Assembly (NCBI GenBank): GCA_963699705.1
Contig: CAVOUW010000003.1
Span: 2,161,776-2,225,775, forward strand
Reading direction: 5' to 3'
From: an uncultured delta proteobacterium
GTDB lineage: Bacteria; Desulfobacterota; Binatia; Binatales; Binataceae
Length of the DNA: 64,000 bases
Below are positions 8,817 through 43,430 of the stretch, piece by piece. The notes below the pieces were generated by a model, which was given only the letters and a program-made list of their open reading frames with translations, was not told where the DNA came from and did not search any database. Position numbers and translations under genes: made by a program. Within the stretch, counting starts at the first letter, position 1, and every line of letters starts with the position of its first letter.

Positions 8817-8873
8817 GTGAAACCCGCGGTGGGTTTCACGCTTCCTTCGGCAGGGGTGACCCCTGCACCCAGT
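8817..8873 (+). repeat. intergenic double-hairpin repeat, family 1, full copy A
   Basis: GTGAAACCCGCGGTGGGTTTCACGCTTCCTTCGGCAGGGGTGACCCCTGCACCCAGT. Hairpin 1 is GAAACCC/GGGTTTC and hairpin 2 is CAGGGGT/ACCCCTG. Near-identical copies are at 10729, 12186(rc) and 43377(rc). Confidence 0.8.
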
Positions 8874-9054
8874 AGAAAGAAATCGCAAAATGGCGAGGAC
8901 GCCCTTTTGCTCTAAGGTTCTCTTTCCGCGTGTGACAAAATCCCGCTCTTATCTAAATCACCCAGGTAAGCTGCCGGCGACTAAGTCGCCAGCAGCGGAC
9001 AACACCCCCAACTAGTTCGAACAGGGACGAAGTCCCGCATCTTTATCTTTTTAC

Positions 9055-9080
9055 ACTGGGTGCAGGGGTCACCTCTGCCG
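9055..9080 (-). repeat. family 1 repeat, half copy (hairpin-2 half) in inverted orientation
   Basis: ACTGGGTGCAGGGGTCACCTCTGCCG is the reverse complement of CGGCAGAGGTGACCCCTGCACCCAGT. Together with copy A it forms 26-bp inverted termini around about 180 bp. Confidence 0.65.
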
Positions 9081-9107
9081 CGGGTGCGGGGCGCGCAGCC
9101 CCGCGTC

Positions 9108-10565
9108 CTAGTGTCTGTAATTCGGCGCTTCCTTCGTAATAAACACGTCATGCACATGACTTTCGCGCATGCCCGCGTCGCTGACCTTCACGAACTTCGC
9201 CCGCTTGCGCAGCTCCGCCAGATTTGCCGCGCCCAGGTATCCCATTCCGGACTGCAGGCCGCCGACCAGCTGCTCGATATTCGACGCGAGCGACCCGCGA
9301 TGCGGCACGCGACCTTCGATTCCCTCCGGCACATGCTTGCCGTCGGTCACGTTGAGCTGCTGCCCGTAGCGGTCGCCTGTGCGCTCGTTCATCGCGCCGA
9401 GCGATCCCATCCCGCGATAAAGTTTGTACGTGCGCCCCTGGTAGAGAATCGTCTCGCCGGGACTTTCTTCTGAGCCCGCGAACAGCGACCCAATCATCAC
9501 GCTGTTAGCGCCGGCCGCAATCGCCTTGGTGATATCGCCTGAGAACCGGATTCCACCGTCTGCGATCACCGGGATATTGCGCGGCTCGGCGACCGCGATC
9601 GTATCCATGATAGCCGTGATCTGCGGCACGCCGACGCCTGAGATCACGCGCGTAGTGCAAATCGAACCCGGCCCCATCCCGACCCGGAGCGCATCGGCGC
9701 CCGCGTCGCACAGCGCCTTGGCCCCTTCGCTGGTCGCGACGTTTCCCGCAACCACTTCGACGCCGGGCCATTCGCTCTTGGTCGCTTTGATCGCATCGAT
9801 CACGTTCCGCGTATGCCCATGCGCGGTGTCGATACAAATCACATCGACGCCCGCACGCCTGAGCGCCGCCACGCGCGCCTCGCGCTCCGGACCGACGCCG
9901 ACCGCAGCGCCAACCCGCAGCCGCCCGAGCTGATCCTTGCTCGCATGCGGATGGCGAATCGCTTTGTCCATATCCTTAACTGTGATCAGCCCGCGCAGAC
10001 GATTCTGATCGTCGACCAGCGGCAGCTTCTCGATCCGATGCGCCTGCAGAAGCTCCTTGGCATGCTCGAGATCGATTCCCGGCCGCGCCGTGATCACTTT
10101 GCTCGTCATCACGTCGCGCACTTGCTTGTCGAGCCGCCGCTCGAAGCGCAGATCGCGATTAGTCAAAATCCCAACCAGCCGTCCGTCGGAAACCACCGGC
10201 AATCCCGAAATCCGAAAACGTTCCATCACCGCCAGCGCCTCGCCAATTTTCTGCTCGGGGCTGACGGTGATCGGATCGACGATCATCCCGGTTTCATATT
10301 TCTTGACCGTCTCGACCTCAGCCGCCTGCCCCTCGATCGAAAGATTGCGATGGATAAATCCAATGCCACCCATCTGCGCGATCGCAATCGCCGTGCGCGA
10401 TTCGGTAACGGTATCCATCGGACTCGAGACCAGCGGAATGCGCAGGCGGATCTTCGGCGTCAACGCAGTAGATACATCGCAATTGGATGGCAACAGGTCG
10501 GACGATTGAGGCAACAGCAGAACGTCATCAAAGGTAAGTGCTTCGCGAAGCTCCTGATGCGCCAT
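9108..10565 (-). CDS. guaB: IMP dehydrogenase
   Basis: [26 protein letters not shown]...two CBS domains...GIGFIHRN...[17 protein letters not shown] at 10563..10565 (codon 21 of the ORF). Confidence 0.9.
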
Positions 10566-10728
10566 AAAAATGTCCTCCTCAACTAGAAAATAAAAAAAGA
10601 GCCCGCGGTTTTTCCGCGGGCCCAATCCAGCCGTCAGTTGTTACACGCAGTCCGTTTAATCAGATGCGCCATAACCGACCCTAACAAGAGCCGCGCACCC
10701 GATCAATACGGGGATTAGGAGATTGAAA

Positions 10729-10784
10729 GTGAAACCCTCCGCGGGTTTCACGCTTCCGCGGCAGGGGTGACCCCTGCACCCAGT
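10729..10784 (+). repeat. family 1 repeat, full copy C
   Basis: GTGAAACCCTCCGCGGGTTTCACGCTTCCGCGGCAGGGGTGACCCCTGCACCCAGT, in the divergent region between guaB and the desaturase. Confidence 0.8.
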
Positions 10785-11009
10785 GAGTCGAGTTCGCGCG
10801 ACTAGCGGGAGCTTGATTAGAAACTTCGGGCGTTCGAGTATCACAGTCCGACTAGCCCCTCGCCTTCGACCAGATTTTCGGGACCGACCACCATCTCCGG
10901 GCTATAAGTTTTTGGATGGGCTCCATCATCAGTACGTTCGGGCTTGGGTTTTGGCGAGAACAAGCGGTCGAAGGGAGACATCGAGAGCATTCGCTGTCGA
11001 GATCGAGAT

Positions 11010-12179
11010 ATGAATTTTGGAGCCAATCGCAAACTCGGCTTTCGATGGGCTGGAGTCCCGATAGCTCTGGCCAGCGCGGTTGCCATATCGCTCGTGGCCT
11101 TGCTTTCCTTCGGAAGCTACGGCGCTGCGATGACTCTCGGGAGGGTTCGTCCGCTACGTAACGCGTATCAATTTCTCTCGAAGTCTTACGACCGGTTAAT
11201 CGATCAGATTGGCCATGAAGTTCTGCAGGACTCCAGAGATACGCCTGCGTTACGACTTATGGTTTCCCTTAGCCTTAGCGCCATACCAATTTTCCTGATC
11301 CAACTCGCTTTGGGAAAACCTCGAGTGCTGCTCGCGATCGCTTTCTACCTTTCCCTTTATGGTCTCAAGTTTCAGCGGTTTGTCAGGATGTTCAGCGCCA
11401 AACACCTGGAAGCGCATCGGCGCCAGGGCTACTTTTCGAAGAAGTACGATAAAGTCTTTGGCCGCTACTTCGAGTTCTTTCTGGGGTATCTCTATGGAAA
11501 CATTCCGGAACTCGATAGGACTGTTCATGTCCATCTCCATCATAGAGAGAATGGCGGATTCGATGACACCGCGGAGTCACGGGGCTACGATCGAACAAGT
11601 CGACTGGATTTCCTCCGGTATCTCTCTAACAACATTTGGACGGTTTTAGGGATTGCCCCATATACCTACTTTAAGGCCAGAGGCGATGAGGAGAACCGAA
11701 GACGCCTGTTATGGGGTATGGTGCGGTACTATGCCTACTTCGGAGCCGTCGTTATCTACGACTGGAGAATTGGGATCATGTTCGTGTTAGTTCCATTTCT
11801 CTGCATGAACTTTCTCACGGCAATAGTCGCATGGGTTCAGCACGCCTTTTACAACTCGGACCGGCCCGAGGACTATTTTGCGCATACCGTAACCGTTCTG
11901 GATGAGGTCAACTTCATGAACGAAGGATACCACCTATGTCATCACCACCGAGCTGGCCTGCATTGGACCGAGATGCCGGCCCATCTCGAGCGGCTTCGTG
12001 ACAGGATGAAAGAGTCTGGCTCCTTGGTGTTCCGCGATCTGGATTTTTTGGGACTCTTCTTTGAGTTGACCCTCCTTTGCAGAATGGATGTGCTTGCCGA
12101 GAAACTTGTCCCTTGGGAACCTATAAGTCACGAGCAGAGATTGGCGTTGCTGGCTAAGAGAACTGCGGTCGAGACTTAG
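11010..12179 (+). CDS. fatty acid desaturase family membrane protein (low-GC, likely acquired)
   Basis: His boxes HLEAHRRQG, HVHLHHREN and HLCHHHRAG with multiple TM segments. Local GC is about 50-55% against about 65% in neighbours. An alternative TTG start is at 10944. Confidence 0.7.
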   Translation: MNFGANRKLGFRWAGVPIALASAVAISLVALLSFGSYGAAMTLGRVRPLRNAYQFLSKSYDRLIDQIGHEVLQDSRDTPALRLMVSLSLSAIPIFLIQLALGKPRVLLAIAFYLSLYGLKFQRFVRMFSAKHLEAHRRQGYFSKKYDKVFGRYFEFFLGYLYGNIPELDRTVHVHLHHRENGGFDDTAESRGYDRTSRLDFLRYLSNNIWTVLGIAPYTYFKARGDEENRRRLLWGMVRYYAYFGAVVIYDWRIGIMFVLVPFLCMNFLTAIVAWVQHAFYNSDRPEDYFAHTVTVLDEVNFMNEGYHLCHHHRAGLHWTEMPAHLERLRDRMKESGSLVFRDLDFLGLFFELTLLCRMDVLAEKLVPWEPISHEQRLALLAKRTAVET

Positions 12180-12185
12180 CACGGG

Positions 12186-12244
12186 TGTAGGGGTCAACCC
12201 GCCGAAGGAAGCAGTGAAAAATGAAACCCACCGCGGGTTCTCAT
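12186..12244 (-). repeat. family 1 repeat, copy D (reverse orientation, degenerate)
   Basis: Its reverse complement is ATGAGAACCCGCGGTGGGTTTCAtttttcacTGCTTCCTTCGGCGGGTTGACCCCTACAC. It lies directly after the desaturase stop. Confidence 0.7.
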
Positions 12245-12264
12245 TTTATTAAGTTATTCCACGC

Positions 12265-13053
12265 TCACTTCCCGCACCAGACTGGTTTGCGCTTTTCCAG
12301 GAAGGCGCCGATTCCTTCTTGCGCGTCCGTTGCCATCGCGTTCTGGCTCATCACTTCTTTTGTGTAGTCGTATGCCTTCGCGGTATCGAGATCGATTTGC
12401 TCGTAAAACGCACGCTTGCCGATTCCGATGATTAGCGGGCTGGCTTCGACTATCTGCATCGCGAGTTTGCGGGTCTCTGCGATTAGCTCCGCGTCGGCCA
12501 CCACTCTGTTCGCGAGTCCCCATTCAGCTGCGATGCGCGCTTTTACTGGCTGCCCAGTCAGCAGCATCTCCATCGCATGCTTGCGTCCGACTGCGCGCGT
12601 CAGCGCGACCATCGGCGTCGAGCAGAACAGTCCGATCCTCACACCCGGCGTCGCGAAACTCGCGCTCTCACCCGCGATGACGAGGTCGCAGGTCGCCGCG
12701 AGCTGGCATCCTGCGGCGGTCGCGATCGCATGCACGCGCGCGATCACCGGCTGTGGAATTCTTTGAATCGTCAGCATTAACTGCGAGCACAGATCGAATT
12801 CATTGCGGTAGAATGCGAGGTCGCGCCCCTTCAGCTCGCCTAGGTCGTGGCCGGCCGAGAACGCCGGCCCGTTGCCGGCGATTATTACCGCGCGCGCATC
12901 GTTGCGTTTGCCAATCGCGACCAGAGCGTCGTTCAGCTCCGTCATCATCGCGGTGGACAGCGCGTTGCGCTTCTCCGGCCGGTTCATCGTGAGCGTGACG
13001 AGCCCGGCTTCTTCTTCGATGATCAAATTCTTCTGCCCGTTTTCATTCGCCAT
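12265..13053 (-). CDS. enoyl-CoA hydratase/isomerase (crotonase family)
   Basis: AVIIAGNGPAFSAGHDLGEL...IARVHAIATAAGCQLAATCDLVIAGESASFATPGVRIGL. ATG at 13051..13053. Confidence 0.85.
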   Translation of the reverse strand: MANENGQKNLIIEEEAGLVTLTMNRPEKRNALSTAMMTELNDALVAIGKRNDARAVIIAGNGPAFSAGHDLGELKGRDLAFYRNEFDLCSQLMLTIQRIPQPVIARVHAIATAAGCQLAATCDLVIAGESASFATPGVRIGLFCSTPMVALTRAVGRKHAMEMLLTGQPVKARIAAEWGLANRVVADAELIAETRKLAMQIVEASPLIIGIGKRAFYEQIDLDTAKAYDYTKEVMSQNAMATDAQEGIGAFLEKRKPVWCGK

Positions 13054-13083
13054 CGGTTTTCACCTGCCTTTGATTTCAGTCTC

Positions 13084-13914
13084 TCACTCGGGCGGTTCGT
13101 TTTTCCATTCCTCGGGATAGAGCAGCAGCAAGTCCTGGCCGAGCGCGCGCACCAGGAATCGCTGCGTCTCATTGATCGCACGTTCGAGCGCCCGCCCGCC
13201 AATCAGCCAATGCCCGCGCCCGCGAATCGTCGTCAGCTTGGCGCCGATCGACTCGGCGAATTTCGTGGTCTGTTGCAGCGGCGCGAAGATGTCCGAATCG
13301 CCGGTGACGACGAGGCGAGGCGCGGCCTTGTCCACTGCCGCGAATTCGATTGCACCGGTGATTACGTCGGTCGCGAGCGCGCCCGAATCGGGAATCATCG
13401 CCTTGATCAACCCGTCGCGCGTGAACGGATCGGAATCGGCGATCAGCTCGAACAGAATTCTCCCGCTCGGCGGTTTGATCGGCCGGCCGAGCATCATCGC
13501 GATGCGATTTCCGATTCCGCCGATGAGCGGTGTGCGAAAGCCCGGCACCAGCGGCGCATACGCGACCGACGCTTTTACTCGGCGATGCTCGCTGAGCTTG
13601 AGCGCGACCAAGCCGCCGACGCCATGACCGAGCACGACCGCGTCGCGGCCGATTCCCTCGATCGCTTCAGCTGCCAGCGCGGTCAAATCATTAAAGCGAA
13701 GTTTCTCGATCGGCGGCGTCGAGTCTTTGCCGAACACGGCGCGCAGATCAGGCACGAACACTTCCCATCCGATCGACGCGAGGTAGCCGACCACCAGCGC
13801 GAGATGCCGCGGCCTCGTGAAGAGTTCGGGCAGGACGATTATCGGCCACGCAAACTTGACCGGCTCGGGCAGCTCGCGCTGTGCGGGGATGCGGCCGAGT
13901 ACGAGGTCGTCCAC
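13084..13914 (-). CDS. alpha/beta-hydrolase fold protein with an atypical nucleophile elbow (GHGVGG)
   Basis: PIIVLPELF...VVLGHGVGGLVAL...VTGDSDIFAP...GRGHW. Asp and His are retained, but the expected Ser in G-H-S-x-G is Gly (codon ggc at 13621..13623). Confidence 0.7.
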   Translation of the reverse strand: MDDLVLGRIPAQRELPEPVKFAWPIIVLPELFTRPRHLALVVGYLASIGWEVFVPDLRAVFGKDSTPPIEKLRFNDLTALAAEAIEGIGRDAVVLGHGVGGLVALKLSEHRRVKASVAYAPLVPGFRTPLIGGIGNRIAMMLGRPIKPPSGRILFELIADSDPFTRDGLIKAMIPDSGALATDVITGAIEFAAVDKAAPRLVVTGDSDIFAPLQQTTKFAESIGAKLTTIRGRGHWLIGGRALERAINETQRFLVRALGQDLLLLYPEEWKNEPPE

Positions 13915-13926
13915 AGCAATGCCGGG

Positions 13927-15189
13927 TTAGGCGCCGCGCGACGCCGCCGCCATCAGGCGCGCGAATCGGAACGAGAGAGACGCAGCCTTCGGCGCCAGCA
14001 TTTGCGCGAACCTGACCATCTCGTCCGCCGCCCATTGTTCGCGGCTCGCCGCGCGATGCGCCAGGTGGCTGCCCTGGTCGAGTGGCAGCTCGCGCGACAC
14101 GCGAATGCTCGCGTTGTAGTACGGCATCAACTCGGCATCGCGCCGCCGCGTGAAGTCGCTCAGCATATCGACCGGAATCGCATTGCCACGGCCGCCGGAG
14201 AACCACTCGCGCGCGAGCTCTCCGACCATCCACGCGCTCATCAACGCCATCGAATGCCCCTGGCCGAACAGCGGATCGACGTGCAGGCCCGCGTCGCCGA
14301 TCAGAATCGCGCCGTCGGTGACCGGATCGCGCCAGGTGTTGTTGAGGATGCCCGAGGAAAATACTTTGCCCGCGATGGTCGCGCCTTCGAGCATCTTCCC
14401 GACTGCGAGCGAGCGAGCGAGTGCGCTTCGCAGATTCGATGCGAGGTCGGTTCGAAAGGTTTGCATCTTCGACGCGTCGAACGCGGTCGCCGCGACCGTG
14501 AGTCCGTTTTCGCATCGACAAAGCAGGTTGGCCTCGCCGGGTGCGGACTCGAATTCCGCGATCAGATCGTCGCCGAGATTTTTCCGCGAGACGCCTTCGA
14601 AGTACGCGTAGTAGTACGCGCGCGCGCACGGCACATCGACGCGCTTGAACGCGTCGATCCGCTCCGACGCGATCTGCGCGACCGAGCTGCGCATCCCGTC
14701 GGCGCCAATCGTCAGCGTCGCACGAAACTCGTGGACGCCCGACGCATCTTCGCCGCGAATTCCGACCACGGCGTTATCTTCGATCAGCAGATCGGTAACT
14801 CTGAAGCGTTCGCGAAACGTGACGCCTTCGAAACTCCGCGCCGCATCGATCATCGCCGCGTCCATCAACACGCGTCCGAGGCAAAGTCCGCGATCGTCCG
14901 CACCGTCGTGCATGAGTTCGGCGCTGTAATCGAAGTCGGGACCGACCGTGCGTGAGCGCGCGAAGCGTACGCCGCCCACGCGCTCGAGCATTTCGAGCAC
15001 GCCCATCCGCTCGAGCACTTTGGTTCCACCGCCGAGCACGATATGCGTCGAGAGCCGATCCGACGGGAACACATCTTTATCGACAAGCAGAACGCGGCGG
15101 CCGTCACGCGCAAGTAAAATTGCGGTCGCGCTGCCGGCGACGCGCGCGCCGACAATTATCACGTCAAAAGTTTTCGCTGACTCGGACAT
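13927..15189 (-). CDS. FAD-dependent oxidoreductase (geranylgeranyl-reductase/monooxygenase-like)
   Basis: MSESAKTFDVIIVGARVAGSATAILLARDGRRVLLVDKD (Rossmann GxGxxG/FAD). The ORF extends to 15246. ATG 15187..15189 is chosen as the start and the exact start is uncertain. Confidence 0.7.
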   Translation of the reverse strand: MSESAKTFDVIIVGARVAGSATAILLARDGRRVLLVDKDVFPSDRLSTHIVLGGGTKVLERMGVLEMLERVGGVRFARSRTVGPDFDYSAELMHDGADDRGLCLGRVLMDAAMIDAARSFEGVTFRERFRVTDLLIEDNAVVGIRGEDASGVHEFRATLTIGADGMRSSVAQIASERIDAFKRVDVPCARAYYYAYFEGVSRKNLGDDLIAEFESAPGEANLLCRCENGLTVAATAFDASKMQTFRTDLASNLRSALARSLAVGKMLEGATIAGKVFSSGILNNTWRDPVTDGAILIGDAGLHVDPLFGQGHSMALMSAWMVGELAREWFSGGRGNAIPVDMLSDFTRRRDAELMPYYNASIRVSRELPLDQGSHLAHRAASREQWAADEMVRFAQMLAPKAASLSFRFARLMAAASRGA

Positions 15190-15265
15190 CAAGCTTCGCG
15201 AGGCTTCGCGATCGACCTCTATCATGTTGAACGCGCGCGCCCGCAAGCAAGCGCCAGCATAAGGA

Positions 15266-15293
15266 AAGAGCCCCCTCTTTCGAAGGGGCTCTC
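15266..15293 (-). terminator. GC-rich hairpin (AGAGCCCC-loop-GGGGCTCT) downstream of the small basic ORF
   Basis: An 8-bp perfect stem at 15267..15274 / 15285..15292. It is followed on the minus strand by the T-rich CTTTCCTTAT. A second hairpin is CCTTCGGGG...CCCGAAGG at about 15356..15385. Confidence 0.35.
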
Positions 15294-15395
15294 CCGTGTT
15301 GCGAGGCCTTTCAGCCTCGGCTTATTCCAGCAGCAATCCCTGGCAGCCTTAGCCAGCCTTCGGGGTATTAGCCCGAAGGTAAACTCGTTAAATGA

Positions 15396-15500
15396 CTACT
15401 TCTTTTTGGTCTTTTTGGCAGGCTTCTTTTTTGCCATTTTGCTCTTCCGCATCGGTTTGGACTTGGTGGCCTTTTTGGCCCGTTTCTTCATTCCTGGCAT
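15396..15500 (-). CDS. 34-aa lysine-rich small basic protein (unlisted small ORF)
   Basis: MPGMKKRAKKATKSKPMRKSKMAKKKPAKKTKKK*. The ATG at 15498..15500 is preceded by a GGAGG Shine-Dalgarno (plus strand CCTCC at 15507..15511, 6 nt from the ATG) and followed by hairpins. It is flanked by an AT-rich intergenic region. Confidence 0.4.
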   Translation of the reverse strand: MPGMKKRAKKATKSKPMRKSKMAKKKPAKKTKKK

Positions 15501-15745
15501 AGGTACCTCCTCTTCCTAGGCTGCTGCTGGAGAAGCGCCTTTTCTTATAGATGAGAAGTCATCTCTCATCGGTTCGAGGCGATTATAGAAACATGTTATT
15601 CTCAAATCAAGGGCCCGAGCGGGATTTATAAAGAAATTTTAAAGTCGAAAGAGTGCAACTGAACCGGTCTGTTTCGGGTCTTTAGAATGACGTTCAAAAT
15701 TAGATGTCTTGAACTGAGACTGACGGTTGAATTAACATCGCTGGG

Positions 15746-16081
15746 ATGACCCGCTTAAGCTTTGTACTCCGCCGCGAGTGGCTCAGCCTAATCTTCGGCG
15801 GGGTGCTAGTGATGCTTATCTTAAGCGCGCTGCTGGGCAACCTGGGTCCGCGCGACCTCGTTGCCCTCCAGAGCCATCGTGCCGCGTTGGAGGCCCGCCG
15901 TAGTCAACTGGCGGCAGAGAATGCGATGTTCAGAACGCGCGTTCAGAAGCTTCGTTCAGATGACCACTATATCGAGCGCCTCATTCGCCGCGAACTCGGC
16001 TACGCGCGACCCGATGAACTCGTGTACAAGTTCGCCGACGATCCCGACACCGATCGCGACAATCAAAACTCTGCTCGCTAG
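15746..16081 (+). CDS. ftsB: septum formation initiator FtsB/DivIC-like
   Basis: N-terminal TM (LSLIFGGVLVMLILSALLG) followed by a coiled coil (LQSHRAALEARRSQLAAENAMFRTRVQKLRSDDHYIERLIRRELGY). Confidence 0.7.
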   Translation: MTRLSFVLRREWLSLIFGGVLVMLILSALLGNLGPRDLVALQSHRAALEARRSQLAAENAMFRTRVQKLRSDDHYIERLIRRELGYARPDELVYKFADDPDTDRDNQNSAR

Positions 16082-17412: not shown

Positions 17413-17575
17413 CAGTGCGTCCTCGTGTCGATTCCGATGATTCGCTTGACTGCGCGGTTGGCGTAAGATTCTCTTCAACCGGCGTACTCCAATCAATGCC
17501 AAGTATCGAACCAGTCACGCAAGCGCCCACCAGCCGATCGCGACGCGCGCCGTCTGACGCCACCGGGGGAATTTA

Positions 17576-18004: not shown

Positions 18005-18007
18005 CGA

Positions 18008-18391: not shown

Positions 18392-18404
18392 TTTTTTAAC
18401 TCTT

Positions 18405-19181: not shown

Positions 19182-19195
19182 CGCGTTACTCCTTA

Positions 19196-32409: not shown

Positions 32410-32418
32410 CGCCGGAAA

Positions 32419-34457
<2,039 letters not shown>

Positions 34458-34539
34458 CCGGTTCGGGCTTGCGCCCGGAATGACTGTCGGCGATTTTTTT
34501 CCTGGCTCATGAATCTCACATAATCCTATCTGCGTCCCG

Positions 34540-36365: not shown

Positions 36366-36390
36366 GTCCGAAGGTCGTGCTGGATGCGAA

Positions 36391-36433
36391 GAACCTAACC
36401 CCTAACCCTTTCCCGAGCGGGAAGGGGAACCAG
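36391..36433 (+). repeat. family 2 GC-rich hairpin repeat (copy 1)
   Basis: GAACCTAACCCCTAACCCTTTCCCGAGCGGGAAGGGGAACCAG, with the stem CCCTTTCCCG/CGGGAAGGGG. It sits between the convergent GT39 and dnaN genes. Confidence 0.75.
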
Positions 36434-36450
36434 ATTTAAGGCATCGCTTG

Positions 36451-37593
36451 CTAGAGTCGCATCGGCATGACGACGTAGGTGTACTGCTGATCCGTCTCGG
36501 TTCTGATGACGCCGGGGCTGACGTCGTCGCTTAGTCCGAGTTCTACTGTCGAATCCGCTTCCTGCGAAATTACGCCGAGGGCTTGCTGTACGTATGACGC
36601 GTTGAATCCGATCGCGAATTCTTCGCTCTTGAAATCGACGTCGAGCGATTCGCTGGCTTCCCCGGTTTCGGGACTCGTCGATGAGACCGTCAGCGTCCCG
36701 GCCGATAGCGCGAATTTGACGCCGTGATATCGCTCGCTGGAGAAGATTGCCGCGCGTTTGATTGCCGCAAACAGCAGATCACGCTTTACCGTGATTTTGT
36801 ATTTCGACTGCTTGGGGATTACACCGCGATAGTCAGGAAATTCGCCTTCGACCAGCCGCATCGAGACTTCAGTCGCGCCGCGCTTCAAATACGCGAGCTG
36901 ACCTTCGAGGCTCAGGCGCACTTCCGGTTCGGTGCCGACATCCAGAATCTTGCGCAGTTCCGCGAGACCCTTTCGCGGAATGATCGCGCCGCTTGGCATC
37001 GCGAATCCCGGCACCTCGCGCTCGATCATCGCGAGGCGATGCCCATCGGTCGCGACCATCCGAACCGCTCCGGGAGCGTTGGACTCGACAAACACGCCGC
37101 TCAAGTTGTAGCGCGCTTCATCGGGACTGACCGCGAAGATCGTTTTGTCGATCATCTGGGCCAGCACTGTCGCTGGGATCGCCAGTTCGGCCTTGAGCTG
37201 TTTCTTCGCTGCGCCAGAATCCTTGCCGGTGCTCTGACTTGGCATCGCGGGGAAGCTGCGCGGATCGAGGCCCATCATTTTGAACTTCGCGCGCCCGCAT
37301 TTCAGCTCGACCCAATCGCCATCAAGCGTCGTCAGCGCGACTTCCTCGCCTTCGGTCTCGCGCACGATTTCAAAAAGTTTGCGCGCGTTGAGGGTCAGAC
37401 TTTTTTCCTTGCCGCTACACGCGACCTGGGTGCGAATTCCGACTTCGAGGTCGGTGGCGCTGAGCGTCAGCGCGTTTCCGTTTGGCTCGAGCAGGACGTG
37501 ACCGAGGATCGGAACCGTCGTGCGCCGTTCCACGATGCCCTGGACGAGTCCCAAACCGCTAAGCAGCGAAGCGCGCTCGATTGCGAGTCCCAT
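36451..37593 (-). CDS. dnaN: DNA polymerase III subunit beta (sliding clamp)
   Basis: MGLAIERASLLSGLGLVQGIVERRTTVPILGHVLLEPNGNALTLSATDLEVGI…three-domain clamp. About 380 aa. Confidence 0.9.
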   Translation of the reverse strand: MGLAIERASLLSGLGLVQGIVERRTTVPILGHVLLEPNGNALTLSATDLEVGIRTQVACSGKEKSLTLNARKLFEIVRETEGEEVALTTLDGDWVELKCGRAKFKMMGLDPRSFPAMPSQSTGKDSGAAKKQLKAELAIPATVLAQMIDKTIFAVSPDEARYNLSGVFVESNAPGAVRMVATDGHRLAMIEREVPGFAMPSGAIIPRKGLAELRKILDVGTEPEVRLSLEGQLAYLKRGATEVSMRLVEGEFPDYRGVIPKQSKYKITVKRDLLFAAIKRAAIFSSERYHGVKFALSAGTLTVSSTSPETGEASESLDVDFKSEEFAIGFNASYVQQALGVISQEADSTVELGLSDDVSPGVIRTETDQQYTYVVMPMRL

Positions 37594-37833
37594 GAATTGT
37601 TAGCCCGTCTTCCTATTCCGGATCTTTAGATCTCTAAAAAAGAATAGCAGTAATAGTAGGAGTTGTGGATTTGTTGATGGAGCCCGCAAGCGACCGAAAT
37701 TGAACGCCGATCGATCGCTGAAAAGCTGTCGGCGAAAAAACGGCTACTCGACAGGGCCGGCCGTCCGCGCACCGACCCTGTCGATAGCTCCAGGTTTATG
37801 CTCCCCTCGTCCACAGCCTCCCCCACAATCGAT

Positions 37834-39258
37834 TCACGCCGCATTCGCGCGGATCGATTTAAGCTCGCGCTCGATTTTCTCGATCGAGAGCCGAAAAGCC
37901 GAATCACTGGTCACGCGCCGCATGATCAGGTTGTACGCGTGAATCACCGTCGAATGGTCGCGCCCGAAATGTTCGCCGATGGTCGGAAACGAGCTGTCGG
38001 TCAGCTTGCGGCAGAGATACATCGCGACCTGGCGGCAGAATGCGATGTGCTGCGTGCGCTTCTTCGACTTCAAATCCGTCAGCCGGATATGGAAAAAATC
38101 CGCGACGGTTTTCTGGATCGATTCGACGTCGGGCTTCGCGTCGTGATTGCGAATCAAATCCTGTAGCGCCTGCCGCGCGAAGTCCACGGTGATTGCCGAT
38201 TGGTTGAGCGACGCGAGCGCCGCCAGCCGCGTCAGGCATCCCTCGAGCTCGCGAACATTCGACGAAACGCTCTGCGCGATATACATCGCGACTTCGGGCG
38301 CCAGTCGCAGGTTTTCGAGCACCGCCTTCTTCTGCACGATCGCGACGCGGGTCTCGAGGTCGGGCGGTGCGATGTCCGCGATCAAGCCCATCTCGAAGCG
38401 ATTGCGCAGCCGCTCCTCGAGCCCCGGAATTTCGCGCGGCACTTTGTCCGAGGTCAGGATGATCTGATGCCGTTCGGCATGGAGCGCGTTGAACGTGTGG
38501 AAGAATTCTTCCTGCGTGCGCTCGCGACCGGCCAGGAATTGCACGTCGTCGAGGATCAAAGTATCAACGCGTCGAAACTTTTCGCGAAACTCGTTCATTT
38601 TGTCGCGCCGCAGCGAGCCGATCAGCTCGTTCATGAAAATCTCGGCCGGCATGAACAGCACTTTCCGCGGCCGCTCGCCGACGGCGTAGATATGGTGCCC
38701 GATCGCGGTCACCAGGTGCGTCTTGCCCAGGCCGACCCCGCCGTAGATGAAAAGCGGGTTGTATTTTTCGCCCGGCTGATTGGCGACCGCCTGGGCCGCG
38801 GCATGCGCGAACTGATTGGCCGATCCCACCACGAACTCCGCAAAACTGTAGCGGGCGTTCAGGGTCGGATGACGATCTCCACGCGGCGCAGCCGCCGTGG
38901 TCGCGCGATTGGTCGCATACGCCTTGCCGTTACCGTTCCCGTTAGCATGGCCGTTGCCATTTGAATGGCCGTTGGCATGACCATTGGCCGGACGTTGTGG
39001 CGGCGTCACGGCCGCAGCATTCTCGCCCAGCGTCAGCCGCACCTCGATTTCGCCGCCGGCCTCGGCCGACAGCGCGGAGCGCATCATGCTCATGTAGCGA
39101 TCGTTGATCCAATCGCGAAAAAATCGGTTGGGCGCTTCGACCGTGACCGTCGAACCTTGATGAGCGACAAAATTAAGCGGCCCAATCCACGTCTCGTACC
39201 CGACCTGACCGAGCTCATCGCGCATACGGTCCGCAGCCCGCTGCCATAGTCCATTCAT
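37834..39258 (-). CDS. dnaA: chromosomal replication initiator protein DnaA
   Basis: [28 protein letters not shown]…[10 protein letters not shown] (Walker A)…DDVQFL…a C-terminal DNA-binding domain (HSTVIHA). ATG at 39256..39258 is preceded by GGGGGAA. The ORF opens at GTG 39276. Confidence 0.9.
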
Positions 39259-39345
39259 ATCGTTCCCCCTGACCACCCCGGAAGCCCAAGCCCGCTCCGG
39301 AAATTAGCGCGCCGGCATCGATCCGGCGCGAATTACGCACAGTCT

Positions 39346-39365
39346 TATCCACACCTGTGGATAAG
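39346..39365. promoter_or_regulatory. inverted pair of perfect DnaA boxes (TTATCCACA cc TGTGGATAA)
   Basis: Exact matches to the DnaA-box consensus at 39346..39354 and its reverse complement at 39357..39365, 88 nt upstream of dnaA. Confidence 0.75.
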
Positions 39366-39604
39366 CGGTTATTCCTTCGTTACAACCAACAATTTGACGG
39401 CACGACACGCCGGACTATCAACTCATCCGGGTTACGATCGGTTCTGTTAGGGTGAAAATTTTGTTCGACGATAGGGGCGATATACACGCGCTTCGGAGCC
39501 ATAGATCACGCGCCGCGAAATGAACCTGTCAGTGAAGATTGGTTCTTGTAAGTACGAAGTGTGCGGCCAAGTGAACGTGATAAACTTATTTCGTGGCGAG
39601 GACA

Positions 39605-39850
39605 AGTGCGCAAAAAAATTCGTCGCTATACGCGCGGAACGTAAAGGAAATTTCCCTGATCAGTGATCGCGCGCAGTGCGCACAAAATTTTGCATCGATC
39701 ATGCGATCGCGCATATCTGCTCTGGGAGCCATCATGCGCGATCGCAAATTTTCGCGTCTCGACGCAAATTTGTCACGCGATCGACGCGCGCGATCAAATT
39801 TTTCTTCGCGATCGAAAAAAAAATTTCGATCCCACGAGATCTTCGAGCAT
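39605..39850. repeat. AT-rich array of GATC-containing 13-mer-like repeats (candidate DNA-unwinding element of oriC)
   Basis: At least 6 copies of (C)GCGATCG(C/A)AAATTTT-like units (GTGCGCAAAAAAATTCG, GTGCGCACAAAATTTTGCATCGATC, GCGCGATCGCAAATTTTCG, GACGCAAATTTGTCACGCGATCG, GCGCGATCAAATTTTTC, GCGATCGAAAAAAAAATTTCGATCC). There are 8 GATC sites within about 150 bp. Confidence 0.55.
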
Positions 39851-39855
39851 TCGCG

Positions 39856-41154
39856 GTGACCTCACGAAAAAAATCAGATGAACTCGTCAAGCGCGCCAGT
39901 GTTAACATTCCTGGTGCGGTGAATTCTCCCGTGCGCGCGTGGAAGGCAGTTGGTGCTGCTCCAATTTTCATCGAGAGTGGCAACGGTGCAACAATCACTG
40001 ACGCCGACGGCAACAATTTTCTCGACTACGTTTGCTCCTACGGACCCGCGATTCTCGGACATGCTGATCCACGCGTCATGCGCGCGATCGCAGAGCAATC
40101 GCGATTGGGCTTGGGTTTCGGCGCGCCGACGCGGCTCGAAGTTGAGCTCGCCGAATTGATCTTGTCGTCGATCGAATGTGCACAAAAAGTAAGATTGGTT
40201 ACTTCGGGAACCGAAGCTGGTCTCACTGCGATCAGACTCGCGCGCGCCGCCACCGGTCGCGAGAACATAATTAAGTTTGACGGGTGCTATCACGGTCATA
40301 GTGACTCGATGCTGGTGCGCGCCGGTTCGGGCGGGATGACTCTTGGTCAACCCGACAGCGCTGGAGTTCCGGCCGCGCTCGCTGCGATGACGATGGTTGC
40401 GCGATATAACGCGATTGAAACGGTCGAAGGTTTATTTCGCGCCGCGCCTGGGAAAATCGCTGCCGTGATCGTCGAGCCCGTCGCCGCTAACATGGGCGTA
40501 GTAAATCCTGACCCGGGTTCACTGAAAGCGCTGGCCGAAATCGCTCACAACAACGGTGCGCTGCTGATCTGTGACGAAGTTATATCGGGGTTCCGACTCT
40601 GCTTCGGCTCCGTTGCCGAAAGCATGGGCATCGCGCCCGACTTGATCATGCTCGGAAAAATAATCGGCGGCGGGATGCCTGTGGGCGCGATCGCCGGCCC
40701 GTCGAAGATCATGGACCTGCTCGCGCCGGTCGGTCCGGTTTATCAAGCGGGCACATTGTCGGGAAATCCGCTTTCTGTTCGCGCCGGTCTCGAAACACTT
40801 CGCATCCTCAAAGACAGCAATCCATACGCCGCGCTTGACGACGCCGGCGCCCGACTCCAAGCCGGCCTCCGCGATGCTCTGAAAAAAACCGGACAGCCTG
40901 GATGCGTTAATCGCGCCGGCTCCCTACTGACGATGTTCCTCGGGCCCGAGCGGGTGCGCGACGCCGACGAAGCTCGCACGTCCGACGCCGCGAAGTTCGC
41001 TAAATTTTTCCATGGCATGATCGATCGCGGCATCAATATCCCGCCGTCGCAATTCGAAGCTATGTTCATCTCGACCGCACACACCAACACAGACATCGAC
41101 CGCACGATCGCTGCCGCCAACGAATCTCTGCGGGATCTCTCGCGAGCGACATGA
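39856..41154 (+). CDS. hemL: glutamate-1-semialdehyde 2,1-aminomutase
   Basis: (GTG)TSRKKSDELVKRASVNIPGAVNSPVRAWKAVGAAPIFIE…GTEAGLTAIRLARA…the PLP-lysine region GKIIGGGMPVGA. The start is uncertain (see findings). Confidence 0.85.
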   Translation: MTSRKKSDELVKRASVNIPGAVNSPVRAWKAVGAAPIFIESGNGATITDADGNNFLDYVCSYGPAILGHADPRVMRAIAEQSRLGLGFGAPTRLEVELAELILSSIECAQKVRLVTSGTEAGLTAIRLARAATGRENIIKFDGCYHGHSDSMLVRAGSGGMTLGQPDSAGVPAALAAMTMVARYNAIETVEGLFRAAPGKIAAVIVEPVAANMGVVNPDPGSLKALAEIAHNNGALLICDEVISGFRLCFGSVAESMGIAPDLIMLGKIIGGGMPVGAIAGPSKIMDLLAPVGPVYQAGTLSGNPLSVRAGLETLRILKDSNPYAALDDAGARLQAGLRDALKKTGQPGCVNRAGSLLTMFLGPERVRDADEARTSDAAKFAKFFHGMIDRGINIPPSQFEAMFISTAHTNTDIDRTIAAANESLRDLSRAT

Positions 41155-41213
41155 AAGCCGACTAGTGTTTTTCTTCACTGGTTGAGAATTCTCGAGGTCT
41201 TGAGGTCACAGCA

Positions 41214-41483
41214 ATGTGCCGAAACATCAAAACTCTTTTCAATTTCGAACCGCCGGTAACCGACGAAGAGGTTCGCGCCGCATCGCTCCAGTTCGTGCGC
41301 AAAATCAGCGGCTTCAACAAACCGTCGAAAGCAAATGAAGGTGCCTTCGCGGCCGCCCTCGACGAAATAGCCGGTGCATCCACTCGGCTTCTTCGCTCAC
41401 TTGAAACCAACGCACCATCGAGAAGTCGCGAGGAAGAAGCAGCAAAGGCGAAAGCCCGCGCTGCGGAAAGATTCGGTACCTGA
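41214..41483 (+). CDS. DUF2277 family protein
   Basis: MCRNIKTLFNFEPPVTDEEVRAASLQFVRKISGF is the canonical N-terminus of DUF2277 proteins. Confidence 0.7.
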   Translation: MCRNIKTLFNFEPPVTDEEVRAASLQFVRKISGFNKPSKANEGAFAAALDEIAGASTRLLRSLETNAPSRSREEEAAKAKARAAERFGT

Positions 41484-41503
41484 TCGCTCAAGGTGAATCA
41501 CGA

Positions 41504-41719
41504 TTGCCATTGATCCAGGGAAAATACGCGCGCCCGCTTGCGATGGCGCTTGAGATCCCGATGTCGCCAATCGCCGGCGGCATCTTCGGCCACTACATCG
41601 ACATGTACTTCCACACCGAGCCCTGGTTCACCGGAATTCTCGCGTTCGCGGGATTCATTCACTCAGTCGTGACTGTTATCAGGATCGCCAGGGAAGTTCC
41701 CCCGACTTCGCAAGGCTAG
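41504..41719 (+). CDS. atpZ: AtpZ/AtpI-like small membrane protein preceding the F0 genes
   Basis: 71 aa, 2 TM. TTG start with an AAGGTGA Shine-Dalgarno 8 nt upstream. It lies directly upstream of atpI-atpB-atpE. Confidence 0.5.
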   Translation: MPLIQGKYARPLAMALEIPMSPIAGGIFGHYIDMYFHTEPWFTGILAFAGFIHSVVTVIRIAREVPPTSQG

Positions 41720-41728
41720 CGACCCCGC

Positions 41729-42118
41729 GTGCGCAACGATCAGATTCCGACGATCCCGGCGATTCAGCGGATGAACGCGATTCTCGTCGCCGTCACCGCG
41801 GGTCTTCTATTTTTTTTCGATTCCACCGCCGCCGCAGTGGGATGTCTTCTCGGCGGCGCAGTCGTGATTGTGAATCTGTGGGTCCTCAGCCTGATCGGCG
41901 CGGCAATCCTTGCGGCCGCAGGCGCGGGAATCTCCGGCACCGCCGCGAAATTCGGCGTGATGGCGATACCGCTCAAGATGCTAATCGTGGTCGGCCTGGT
42001 CTTTCTGGTTTTCAGGCGCACGCACATTGATGGCGTAGGATTCGCCCTCGGAGTCTTGACTCAGATGACCGCGGCAATTATTGAAACCGGGCGTGCTTCG
42101 CTCCGCGGCTCCAGCTAA
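41729..42118 (+). CDS. atpI: ATP synthase protein I
   Basis: 129 aa, 4 TM. GTG start. Assigned by position before atpB. Confidence 0.6.
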   Translation: MRNDQIPTIPAIQRMNAILVAVTAGLLFFFDSTAAAVGCLLGGAVVIVNLWVLSLIGAAILAAAGAGISGTAAKFGVMAIPLKMLIVVGLVFLVFRRTHIDGVGFALGVLTQMTAAIIETGRASLRGSS

Positions 42119-42142
42119 GATCGCCGCGGCGGAGATAATTTT

Positions 42143-42838
42143 TTGCAGACCTCAATAAACTTTCTCGAAATAATCGGCGGCGGCAAAATCCCCGAAGTCC
42201 TGGTCGGCACCTGGCTGGTGATGGGAATCCTGCTGATTTTTGGCCTCCTTGCGCGTCGCTCACTGGCGGCAGCTGCTGATCCGATCGTCCCCGACGACCG
42301 GATCACCTTGCGCTCGGTCGCCGAGACGATCGTCGAATGGGCCGATGGCTTCGTTTCCGAAGTCACCCAGCTGCATCACTATCGCCAATTCGTCCCGTTC
42401 TTTGGCACCCTGTTCCTGTTCATCCTGCTCGCGAATTTTCTCGGGCTGGTGCCGGGGATGGAACCGCCGACCGCCGACTCCGATCTGACCTTCGCGCTCG
42501 GCACGATTTGTTTCGTTTACTACATCTACCAGGGGATGAAGGCGAACGGCGTCCTCGGCTACTTGCGCACCTATCTCGGCCCGATGCTCGCGATCGCACC
42601 GCTGATGCTGATGATCGAGATCGCCGACAACCTGTTTCGCCCGTTTTCGCTCGGCGTACGTCTTTACGCAAACATGTTTGCCGATCACATGGTGCTCGGC
42701 ATCTTCACCGGCTTGACCAAGTTATTCGTCCCGCTCGCCTTCCTGACGCTCGGCTCGATCGTATGCATCATCCAGGCGATGGTCTTCATGATCCTGTCGA
42801 TGGCGTATGTGCGGCTCGCGGTCGAGCACGAACATTAG
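42143..42838 (+). CDS. atpB: F0F1 ATP synthase subunit a
   Basis: LFLFILLANFLGLVPG…LMLMIEIADNLFRPFSLGVRLYANMFADHMVL carries the conserved Arg of subunit a. TTG start after GGAG. Confidence 0.9.
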   Translation: MQTSINFLEIIGGGKIPEVLVGTWLVMGILLIFGLLARRSLAAAADPIVPDDRITLRSVAETIVEWADGFVSEVTQLHHYRQFVPFFGTLFLFILLANFLGLVPGMEPPTADSDLTFALGTICFVYYIYQGMKANGVLGYLRTYLGPMLAIAPLMLMIEIADNLFRPFSLGVRLYANMFADHMVLGIFTGLTKLFVPLAFLTLGSIVCIIQAMVFMILSMAYVRLAVEHEH

Positions 42839-42966
42839 TCGAAACCCGAAAACAACAAATAGAGATTTCATGTGCCCGGGATTCCGCCCGGAAATTGTGG
42901 TGGTAGAGGAAAGAGAGGCGGCCGGTACTGGAACTTAGAGGCGCGCGAAACAAGGAGGAACGAGAA

Positions 42967-43311
42967 ATGGTTCGAAAGATTGGCAACGTCCTGGGATTTG
43001 TCACGCTCGCGATTGTCGCATCACCGCTGCTCGCGATGGCGCAGGAGGCCGCGGTCCCCGTGGTCCGCATGACGCAGTCACCGCTCAGCGTCGGATTGAT
43101 CGCGCTCGCCGCCAACCTGGGCGTCGGCATCGCAGCGTTCGGGAGCGCGCTCGGCCAGGGGCGCATGGCCGCATCGGCAATGGAATCGATCGGCCGCAAT
43201 CCGAACGCAGCCGGCCAGATTTTCACCCCGATGCTGCTCGGCCTCGCATTCATCGAAGCGCTGACCCTGTACGCGCTCGTGATCGGATTCCTGCTGCAGC
43301 TGAAAATCTGA
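42967..43311 (+). CDS. atpE: F0F1 ATP synthase subunit c with an N-terminal signal-peptide-like extension
   Basis: The core is GLIALAANLGVGIAAFGSALGQGRMAASAMESIGRNPNAAGQIFTPMLLGLAFIEALTLYALVIGFLL. The ATG 42967 has a strong AAGGAGG. The extra 34 aa are MVRKIGNVLGFVTLAIVASPLLAMAQEAAVPVVR. Confidence 0.85.
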   Translation: MVRKIGNVLGFVTLAIVASPLLAMAQEAAVPVVRMTQSPLSVGLIALAANLGVGIAAFGSALGQGRMAASAMESIGRNPNAAGQIFTPMLLGLAFIEALTLYALVIGFLLQLKI

Positions 43312-43337
43312 AGATTCGAGATGCGTTTCGGTACAAC

Positions 43338-43366
43338 GGGGCCCGAGACGGGCCCCGTTTCTTTTC
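43338..43366 (+). terminator. rho-independent terminator after atpE
   Basis: GGGGCCCG-AGA-CGGGCCCC followed by GTTTCTTTT, 27 nt after the atpE stop. Confidence 0.7.
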
Positions 43367-43376
43367 CTGTCACCAA

Positions 43377-43430
43377 GGTGCAGGGGTTACCCCTGCCGAA
43401 GGAAGTTTGAAACCCACCGCGGGTTTCAAA
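43377..43430 (-). repeat. family 1 repeat, copy E (reverse orientation)
   Basis: Its reverse complement is TTTGAAACCCGCGGTGGGTTTCAAACTTCCTTCGGCAGGGGTAACCCCTGCACC. It sits between the convergent atpE and Smr genes. Confidence 0.8.

Follow-up and report, generated by a model that had tools for sequence, protein, structure and literature searches.

A modular double-hairpin repeat of the Binataceae, probably a family of extragenic palindromes of the REP/BIME kind

Five copies of a double-hairpin repeat in the window

The DNA analysed in this study, in the following termed the window, comprises 64,000 nucleotides (nt) from an uncultured member of the Binataceae (positions 2,161,776 to 2,225,775 of contig CAVOUW010000003.1, assembly GCA_963699705.1) and contains five copies of a short repeat that is built of two successive hairpins. 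The repeat belongs to a family that is dispersed, lineage-wide and modular, that keeps its stems, lies against gene ends and is gained and lost without inverted termini. We regard it as probably a family of repetitive extragenic palindromes (REPs) with a likeness to the bacterial interspersed mosaic elements (BIMEs). A preliminary description made from the letters alone had listed five copies, and all of them were recovered at these sites and strands by reading of the sequence, by scans with the hairpin cores and by a covariance model (R1). R1 was built from the three strong copies of the window and 96 copies of other genomes, all 99 of them distinct, and was run over the whole window with filters off. 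Exactly five full-length matches were obtained, three of them strong (79-94 bits); besides these, only opposite-strand palindromic half-matches at the same sites reached E<0.01. The hairpin-2 core GGTGCAGGGGTSACCCCTGCC (≤3 mismatches) was found at 4 loci of the window against 0 in 100 dinucleotide-preserving shuffles, and the hairpin-1 core at 4 loci against a shuffle mean of 0.09.

The neighbouring genes were named by Pfam. Copy 1 is a full unit on the plus strand (8789-8877; R1 93.6 bits, E=1.5e-30) that consists of a leader (8789-8816), hairpin 1 (GTGAAACCC-GCGGT-GGGTTTCAC, 8817-8839), a linker (GCTTCCTTCG, 8840-8849), hairpin 2 (GCAGGGGTGACCCCTGC, 8850-8866) and the tag ACC-CAGT (8867-8873). 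It is followed on the same strand by a further module, HP4 (AATCGCAAAATGGCGAGGACGCCCTTTTGC, 8884-8912), a hairpin with an AGGA loop. Copy 1 is antisense to ddl (7607-8773, minus strand) and located 43 nt 5' of the ddl start codon at 8773. Copy 2 (9055-9107, minus strand; R1 match 9051-9132, 33.0 bits, E=3.5e-9) begins 3-4 nt past the stop codon (TAG, 9108-9110) of guaB (9108 to ~10570, minus strand). The preliminary description had taken it for a bare half-copy. It is instead a hybrid unit, in which hairpin 2 (GCAGAGGTGACCCCTGC, 9062-9078, with one A.C mismatch and the tag ACC-CAGT) is combined with a different first hairpin, HP1b (GCGGGGC-TGCGC-GCCCCGC, 9085-9105), and the linker ACCCGC; a module termed HP3 (GATGC-GGGAC-TTCG-GTCCC-TGTT, 9020-9041, minus strand) follows 3' of it. 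Copies 1 and 2 form a 36-nt inverted pair (8848-8883 / 9045-9080), and the 334-nt guaB-ddl spacer consists almost wholly of repeat modules: read in the direction of transcription, HP1b, hairpin 2 and HP3 are followed by ~110 nt and then by reversed HP4, hairpin 2, hairpin 1 and leader.

Copy 3 (10701-10788, plus strand; 78.9 bits) is a full unit in the divergent intergenic region between guaB and a fatty-acid desaturase gene (10944-12179, plus strand); it has a TCCGC loop in hairpin 1 and a linker that is one base shorter (GCTTCCGCG). Copy 4 (12176-12270, minus strand; 28.4 bits, E=1.4e-7) lies between the convergent genes for the desaturase and an enoyl-CoA hydratase (12265-13053, minus strand; stop 12265-12267). 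Its presence was correctly noted before, and its description has to be amended: the unit is decayed, with a hairpin 1 lengthened by an A-run and a T-run (12223-12241), a 9-nt insertion (TTTTTCACT) and a degraded hairpin 2 (GGCGGGTTGACCCCTACACC). Copy 5 (43369-43457, minus strand; 83.9 bits) is a full unit of a 'loop A' subfamily with hairpin 1 TTTGAAACCC..GGGTTTCAAA, hairpin 2 GCAGGGGTAACCCCTGC and the tag ACC-TTGG. Its hairpin 1 begins 23 nt past the stop codon (43453-43455) of an Smr-domain gene (43453-44259, minus strand), and the unit is located between this gene and the terminator (43340-43366) of atpE (42967-43311, plus strand); atpB is found at 42143-42838 on the plus strand. All five copies are intergenic, as had been described, and copies 2, 4 and 5 stand with leader and hairpin 1 foremost, 3-23 nt past the stop of a gene on the minus strand.

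The longest open reading frame (ORF) called for ddl (7607-8839) is overextended from 8773 to 8839 through hairpin 1, and similar overextended calls were seen at other loci. The repeats will thus lengthen predicted N-termini in the automatic annotation of metagenome-assembled genomes (MAGs) of Binatus.

Anatomy of the unit and its mosaic grammar

The anatomy of the unit was derived from 150 hairpin-2 sites with their flanks, 144 of which are of Binataceae. The unit has a polarity: it opens with an A/T-rich leader (~25 nt), after which come hairpin 1, a 10-nt pyrimidine linker, hairpin 2 and the sequence ACC-CAGT. Because the leader is conserved 5' of hairpin 1, the conserved unit has a length of ~85-90 nt and not of ~57 bp as originally estimated. 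The leader occurs in two main forms, (GGGGAAGGGG)AAATCACTTTATTGAATG and GGAACTTAATTGAATG, and the 3' part of leader type 1 reads ...ATCACTTTATTGAATG. Hairpin 1 comprises 23 nt with a stem of 9-10 bp and a variable loop of 3-5 nt. Its main stem is GTGAAACCC/GGGTTTCAC, and variants are GCGGAACCC/GGGTTCCGC, GTGGAACCC/GGGTTCCAC, ATGAAACCC/GGGTTTCAT and TTGAAACCC/GGGTTTCAA. The linker is CGCTTCCTTC, or CACCTCCTTG in the subfamily with the stem GCGGAACCC/GGGTTCCGC. Hairpin 2 comprises 17 nt with a 7-bp stem and a 3-nt loop (GCAGGGG-TGA-CCCCTGC); it is followed by ACC and then by CAGT or CGGT, or by TTAGT or TTGGT where the loop base is A.

Hairpin 1 is present at 109 of the 144 Binataceae hairpin-2 sites. 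In the reverse check, a recognisable hairpin 2 was found at ~115 of 122 hairpin-1-anchored sites of a metagenome sample. The 5' partner of hairpin 2 is hairpin 1 in 103-109 cases, HP1b in 11 and a third form, HP1c (AATCGCCTGCGCGGCGGGC), in 13. On the 3' side, HP3 (AAGAGAAGATGC-hairpin-TGTTAGAAC) follows hairpin 2 at ~51 of the 150 sites, ~37 of them full double-hairpin units, and HP4 (AATCGCAAAATGGCGAGGACGCCCTTTTGC) follows in other genomes at ~34 of 150, including ~25 full double-hairpin units. The double hairpin is therefore the commonest combination within a mosaic vocabulary that has hairpin 2 as its hub. At nine loci including the window, two copies of hairpin 2 converge at a distance of 139-210 nt, and the interiors of these pairs are unlike one another.

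Two further arrangements were observed. Tandem arrays of hairpin 2 with a ~33-nt module (CAATGTTAAGGCCGCCCGCCGTTGGCGGGCGCG), which resemble BIME-2, are present with periods of 81-130 nt at two of the sampled loci (L065, 731-990; L069, 3276-3440; L numbers denote sampled loci throughout). A 48-nt pair in the window (36390-36437 / 55053-55100; 96% complementary; AGAACCTAACCCCTAACCC-TTTCCCGAGCGGGAAGGGG-AACCAGATTT) represents another hairpin family, 'HP0', that adjoins hairpin 2 at other Binatus loci (L016, L115) and whose 3' half is resembled by the purine-rich leader GGGGAAGGGGAAATCAC.

Three other interpretations of the conserved parts were considered and rejected. A helix between leader and linker appears in the minimum-energy fold, yet GGAAGGG is kept in the leader whether the linker has CTTCC or CCTCC; since the leader remains unchanged across linker variants, the helix is not supported by covariation. 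A coding function of the ATG-TGA in the leader and of the ORFs that run through the hairpins can be dismissed, as loop and stem lengths differ between copies and the frames are not conserved. Integron attC sites, suggested by a GTTAGAA 3' of HP3, are ruled out by the housekeeping character of the flanking genes, by the misfit to the GTTRRRY consensus and by the lack of a cassette array. The resemblance of the linker complement to a Shine-Dalgarno sequence, pointed out in the preliminary description, is real; a start codon, however, is not consistently found downstream of it.

Constraint on the stems and coupling between loop and flank

Stem conservation was assessed in two alignments, A2 with 99 copies, in which hairpin 2 is fixed by the way the sample was collected, and A3 with 95 distinct rows from a hairpin-1-anchored metagenome sample that was not selected on hairpin 2. 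In A2, 96% of the cells of hairpin 1 are paired and two-sided changes occur at three pairs. Both sides were changed in 38 cells compared to 5.9±2.1 after shuffling, and none of 500 shuffles reached 38; these counts do not represent independent events, the copies being mutually related. When the partner columns were slid against each other, pairing fell to 32-51%. Hairpin 2 was paired in 98.6% of the cells of A3, with G-C (76), C-G (7) and U-A (4) at the apical pair, and its longer variants GGGGC-CA-GCCCC and GGGGC-TGCA-GCCCC remain paired as well. The stems of HP3 likewise differ by compensatory changes (GGGAC/GTCCC, GGGC/GCCC, GGCC/GGCC, GGGGC/GCCCC, GGTGC/GCACC); the strand asymmetry of wobble pairs, tried as a means of telling RNA from DNA, amounted to 6 G.U among 185 HP3 pairs and did not separate the two. 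The variants that persist are those that preserve the structure. For the consensus unit a folding energy of -46.2 kcal/mol (sense) and -40.4 kcal/mol (antisense) is predicted, with z of about -2.7.

A second regularity links the central loop base of hairpin 2 to the first base after the GCACC foot: the combinations G/C and A/T were counted 126 and 14 times, G/T and A/C only once and three times (Fisher p=1e-15; in the window at 8850-8873 and 43373-43396, otherwise at sampled loci L002-L241). In the independent sample, G-C or A-U was present in 85 of 95 rows, and the coupling persists on G-C, C-G and U-A backgrounds of the apical pair. A simple RNA pseudoknot is excluded, as a 3-nt loop cannot reach the coupled base. 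The simplest account is the hitch-hiking of two old subfamilies. The more interesting account, by analogy, would be a contact of the kind by which IS608-type transposases read their own cleavage site.

Distribution among genomes and metagenomes

The window is 99.3% identical to a metagenome contig of the ENA (L001) and 79-86% identical to MAG contigs of Candidatus Binatus and of 'Deltaproteobacteria bacterium palsa' (Binataceae, Binatota). The exact 21-mer of hairpin 2, GGCAGGGGTNACCCCTGCACC, was found in at least 115 genome stretches, nearly all of them from Binatus/Binataceae MAGs with one genome per species, and hairpin 1 together with the linker in at least 120 contigs of soil and peat metagenomes. 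A density of about one copy per 20-26 kb can be estimated from the sampled loci; the five copies within the 64 kb of the window are distributed over three separate regions. A local duplication or a chance similarity, the first of which had been named beforehand as a possible outcome, is excluded by the shuffles, the covariance model and the genome and metagenome scans.

A known RNA family is excluded, too. Rfam gave 0 matches in the window at gathering thresholds, and none of the matches in 8700-12400 at E≤10 overlapped a copy; a full-text search of the available literature for the core sequences gave no match. Copies dispersed over many Binataceae genomes and the lack of an Rfam or literature match thus leave neither of the two grounds on which the family might have been discarded.

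An identical 21-mer (GGCAGGGGTGACCCCTGCACC) is present in six stretches of Polymorphobacter (Alphaproteobacteria; L006, L031, L064, L074, L079, L084) and in an IMG/VR contig (L119). Its flanks are constant but different, with GCCTCCGGCG on the left and often CGGTTGTTTG on the right, and it is apparently a separate family with a common palindrome. Viral contigs contributed five stretches, with three Binatus-type units, two Polymorphobacter-type units (both in L119) and one unrelated match of low GC content; these matches gave no sign of a phage origin.

Position relative to genes

The units were placed on genes with a purpose-written caller based on codon usage; for L001 its calls agreed with those of the database, except that start codons were over-long. 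Of 109 full units placed on the called genes, 81 were assignable to a type of intergenic region: 57% are located in co-directional, 28% in convergent and 15% in divergent regions, compared to a background of 66%, 16% and 18% (chi-square p=0.009). An upstream gene oriented like the unit was present for 59 units, and in 49 of these hairpin 1 follows the stop codon of this gene by 0-40 nt, which places the stop at or within the leader; the exact distances are 2-40 nt, or 0-38 nt if the count begins 2 nt farther upstream. A gene end is found within 60 nt of the hairpin-2 end in only eight cases (binomial p=1.6e-8 against the leader end). HP3, HP4 and other modules lengthen the unit on its hairpin-2 side, which accounts for much of this polarity. 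Within co-directional regions 25 units are in sense and 21 in antisense orientation (p=0.66). The family hence favours the 3' ends of genes without strand-specificity to transcription. REPs are also found near gene 3' ends, and their ends often supply stop codons (Di Nocera et al. 2013, PMC3733652).

Gain, loss and age of copies

Syntenic pairs were taken from an all-against-all comparison of the fetched loci and yielded four comparisons of filled and empty sites. The 12-nt spacer of L040 is empty, and the orthologous spacers comprise 93 nt with a unit (L043) and 159 nt with a unit and HP3 (L004). In L018 two convergent stops are only 2 nt apart; at the same site L092 has a 272-nt two-armed block whose ends restore both stops. 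At a third site, 15 nt in L102 correspond to 140 nt in L099. At another L092/L018 site hairpin 2 is found in both loci, and leader, hairpin 1 and linker only in L092, from which it follows that modules can be gained and lost separately. Terminal inverted repeats are lacking in the single unit, whose conservation profile shows unlike ends. No consistent target duplication was detected over the four filled/empty pairs: it is absent in three, and an ambiguous motif, GAAGGAAC, stands at both edges of the L004 insert. Turnover of the family is real, as the filled and empty orthologous sites demonstrate.

Some copies are old. L033, with flanks ~79% identical to those of the window, likewise has a unit between the Smr-domain gene and atpE. 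The two copies belong to unlike subfamilies, TTTGAAACCC / loop A / TTGG in the window and GTGAAACCC / loop G / CAGT in L033, and the copies of L004 and L043 likewise differ in subfamily. Such a swap at orthologous sites points to insertions that recur at one spot or to conversion between copies. The conclusion drawn earlier from the high identity of the copies, namely recent activity, does not follow: since orthologous copies persist between flanks of only ~79% identity, the identity reflects constraint or homogenisation. The conservation of orthologous pairs relative to their flanks suggests constraint and falls short of proof, because the loci had been chosen for an exact hairpin 2.

Other structures in the window

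Just upstream of guaB, at 10593-10714 (minus strand), a strong terminator-like hairpin with a T-run is located (10623-10599, GGGCCCGCGGAAAAACCGCGGGCTC then TTTTTTTATT). It is overlapped by a weak Rfam match to anti-hemB (23 bits, E=0.025), well under the gathering score of 49.5, and could represent a leader/attenuator or a small RNA. A separate repeat family is represented by a 200-nt inverted repeat at 46984-47183, in the convergent intergenic region past a gene at 44449-46983 (plus strand); its two 66-nt arms, which start with TGTGTCATCCCGAGCGCAGCCGAGGGACCCCGGATC, are 85% complementary with 68 nt between them. At 60815-62883 a stretch of ~1.24 kb is duplicated in tandem, with 71-80% identity over several collinear blocks; the duplication probably corresponds to two adjacent paralogous genes.

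Interpretation

Taken together, the repeat is probably a REP/BIME-like family of extragenic palindromes, specific to the Binataceae, that would be copied in trans and would give rise to RNA hairpins at gene 3' ends. The likeness to REPs that had been proposed at the outset is borne out by dispersed, extragenic, palindromic and lineage-wide copies near gene 3' ends, by subfamilies that preserve the structure and by the fact that no local duplication is involved. With respect to the mechanism, we assume that the units are probably copied by an enzyme that is encoded elsewhere and recognises folded hairpins of single-stranded DNA (a RAYT, i.e. REP-associated tyrosine transposase, or another enzyme, HUH-like or not), because inverted ends and target duplications are lacking and the unit relies on its hairpins. 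Transcribed units would form stable RNA hairpins at the 3' ends of genes in either orientation, since the units are palindromic. Such hairpins might shield the mRNA upstream against 3' exonucleases or keep adjoining transcripts apart, instead of working as classical U-tract terminators, and a stabilisation of mRNA, which the preliminary description had also considered, appears plausible as a model. Leader and linker might be recognised by the mobilising enzyme or by a protein that binds DNA, and the linker, to judge from its sequence, could expose a segment that is anti-Shine-Dalgarno-like in sense and Shine-Dalgarno-like in antisense transcripts.

Several points weigh against this interpretation. 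Neither hairpin has an unpaired GTAG or CGTC tag beside it; 15% of the copies are located in divergent (promoter) regions, where a role at 3' ends cannot apply; the strong conservation of the single-stranded leader and linker is not explained by a pure hairpin function; and the role as RNA is one that we infer. In addition, ~1.6 Mb around ~270 sampled copies were searched for a mobilising gene. Motif scans of the ORFs gave no RAYT or IS200-type motif, tblastn with E. coli RayT (L242, from NC_000913) gave a best E of 0.34, and no transposase gene was seen in this DNA. The genes bracketed by inverted copies are, according to Pfam, ordinary enzymes and transporters, and the recurrent neighbour families are ordinary as well (short-chain dehydrogenases, CoA transferases, acyl-CoA dehydrogenases, luciferase-like oxygenases). 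This absence is mild evidence against one RAYT per genome that is flanked by a few of ~200 copies, as a sample of ~270 copies should hit such a gene a few times.

Other explanations have to be compared with the REP/BIME-like reading. The unit might be a strand-specific, cis-acting RNA element of 3' untranslated regions, the sense transcript of which, with an exposed linker as a mimic of the anti-Shine-Dalgarno sequence, acts on ribosomes, on a downstream Shine-Dalgarno sequence or on RNases, with its spread being secondary. In favour of it, 49 of 59 co-oriented units have their leader end next to a stop codon, compared to eight cases for the hairpin-2 end (p=1.6e-8), leader and linker are conserved though unpaired, the innermost pair of hairpin 1, with G.U in 50 copies and A.C in a single one, fits folding of the sense strand, and the linker of one subfamily, CACCTCCTT, is identical to the usual 3' end of 16S rRNA. 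We nevertheless consider such an element unlikely: 25 units in sense face 21 in antisense orientation (p=0.66), 15% lie between divergent genes, the polarity results largely from modules that extend the hairpin-2 side, HP3 has no excess of G.U (6/185), leader and linker show no covariation, and Rfam gives no match. To a similar degree doubtful is a function as DNA sites for a chromosomal protein (nucleoid-associated, gyrase or IHF-like), with hairpins and leader being recognised, as proposed for the BIMEs of E. coli, which bind gyrase, IHF and Pol I. A BIME-like mosaic, an orientation that is independent of transcription and the exact conservation of a 21-mer across species speak for it, and leader type 1 (AATCACTTTATTG) is one mismatch from the E. 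coli IHF consensus WATCAANNNNTTR, a resemblance that is a lead only. Leader type 2 (GGAACTTAATTG), however, misfits the consensus, no candidate protein was identified, and binding sites alone explain neither the compensatory stem changes nor insertion and loss at orthologous sites. A third possibility, which we likewise hold to be rather improbable, is a site-specific insertion beside stop codons by a single-stranded-DNA enzyme that reads its cleavage or target site via base pairing with the element. It is raised by the loop/flank coupling and by the different subfamilies at one orthologous site that is empty in a third species, as well as by the lack of a visible RAYT gene, of a GTAG/CGTC tag and of a target duplication.

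Two explanations named in the preliminary description, a miniature inverted-repeat transposable element (MITE) and a terminator, are considerably less probable. A classical MITE, that is, a deletion derivative of an insertion sequence with a DDE transposase, terminal inverted repeats and target-site duplications, would be in line with the convergent unit pairs at 139-210 nt that resemble long inverted ends (8848/9058 in the window and eight other loci), with the 272-nt two-armed block of L092 that is missing from L018 as one piece and with GAAGGAAC at both edges of the L004 insert. The single unit, however, is the commonest form and asymmetric, with unlike ends and without terminal inverted repeats. 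The arms of the paired form differ by compensatory changes and in module content and are therefore two units, each beside its own gene end; three of the four filled/empty pairs have no duplication, and no transposase gene was seen in the 1.6 Mb of DNA searched. We thus regard a MITE as very unlikely. The same low probability is assigned to a set of intrinsic terminators, or of promoters facing outward, that have no more in common than their sequence. A terminator-like character on both strands is flagged for copy 4 and its relative L014, in which hairpin 1 is placed between A and T runs, but the consensus has no U-tract after either stem (CGCTTCC follows hairpin 1 and ACCCAGTATTAAG hairpin 2), and within the window only the decayed copy at 12224-12240 has this character; the terminator function was mostly not confirmed. 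Moreover, the lineage uses ordinary terminators, such as that of atpE at 43340-43366. As to promoters, an antisense GTGAAA-N18-TACAAT, 37 nt 5' of ddl, is flagged as promoter-like, and the leader faces a gene start in 41 units at a median of 88 nt. Most copies, though, have TTCAAT or TTAAAT as the -10-like hexamer, without the key A at position 2, and the two promoter-like matches in the scanned region compare to 1.6 expected from shuffles.

No family of the REP/BIME kind has previously been described in the phylum Binatota, the papers on which concern metabolism and ecology as far as their titles and abstracts tell. The Binataceae are a widespread uncultured lineage of soil and peat, for which a defined repeat family is now available. 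The repeat can explain breaks in assemblies and can mark strains; annotation can mask or model it, and many of the long ORF calls made here run into it. Because it has no tag and no nearby RAYT gene, a fixed two-palindrome unit and clear filled/empty sites, it is also a usable test case for the spread of untagged extragenic palindromes, a question that has been raised for CGTC REPs. The filled/empty pairs finally represent natural experiments on the effect of the hairpins on the expression of flanking genes.

Comparison with known systems

Intrinsic terminators differ from the Binataceae repeat in the U-tract that its consensus lacks, only the variant at 12224-12240 having been flagged. The MITE-type repeats Correia/NEMIS, ERIC, RUP and BOX are small, folding and non-coding, too; they measure ~100-150 nt, are present in transcripts and can change the expression of neighbouring genes. 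The single unit of the Binataceae is distinguished from them by the absence of terminal inverted repeats and of a consistent target-site duplication. REPINs and their RAYTs (Bertels and Rainey 2011, PMC3116915) provide a closer parallel, as they form non-autonomous, vertically persistent populations of short palindromes, some of them inverted doublets. The basic Binataceae unit is nonetheless not a REPIN: in place of one REP repeated as an inverted doublet, it has two unrelated hairpins, 1 and 2, that follow each other head-to-tail. Its inverted hairpin-2 pairs are more widely spaced (139-210 nt, nine loci) with interiors that differ, and the sampled DNA contained no RAYT gene.

With REPs, including the SMAGs of Stenotrophomonas and the REPs of Pseudomonas, the family shares short G+C-rich palindromes with loops of 2-5 nt in high copy number and in dispersed, extragenic positions. 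Both prefer co-directional and convergent regions near an upstream stop codon, which is sometimes completed by the repeat, and both have subfamilies with complementary stem changes, occasional G.T pairs and an occurrence as singletons, dimers and groups (PMC3733652). In the broad sense, the Binataceae unit thus has the traits of a REP, namely short stem-loop palindromes, dispersed copies, an extragenic placement at 3' ends and stem-compensated subfamilies. The REP criteria of Di Nocera et al. (2013, PMC3733652) recognise GTAG- and CGTC-tagged superfamilies by an unpaired motif that stands at one end of the palindrome, with GYAG, GYRG, GTRG, GTMG and GTGG counting as variants of the GTAG tag. 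In contrast, the Binataceae hairpins are flanked by AATG and CGCTTCC (hairpin 1) and by TTCG(G) and ACC-CAGT (hairpin 2; in reverse ACTG-GGT-GCAGGGG), and neither tag agrees with any of these flanks. Further differences are the fixed head-to-tail pair of unrelated palindromes with a conserved 10-nt linker and a leader, while head-to-tail dimers are rare in the described REP families, the lack of a RAYT gene in the sampled DNA and the origin from an uncultured candidate phylum outside earlier surveys.

The overall construction is most readily compared to that of the BIMEs of E. coli, which are likewise mosaics of palindromes with a few conserved non-palindromic linkers, alternative combinations round one hub, and clusters or arrays. 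There is no sequence relationship between the two, and the resemblance is one of architecture and not of homology: the grammar of the Binataceae repeat, in which the leader is followed by hairpin 1, HP1b or HP1c, by hairpin 2 and then by HP3 or HP4, is specific to its own lineage.

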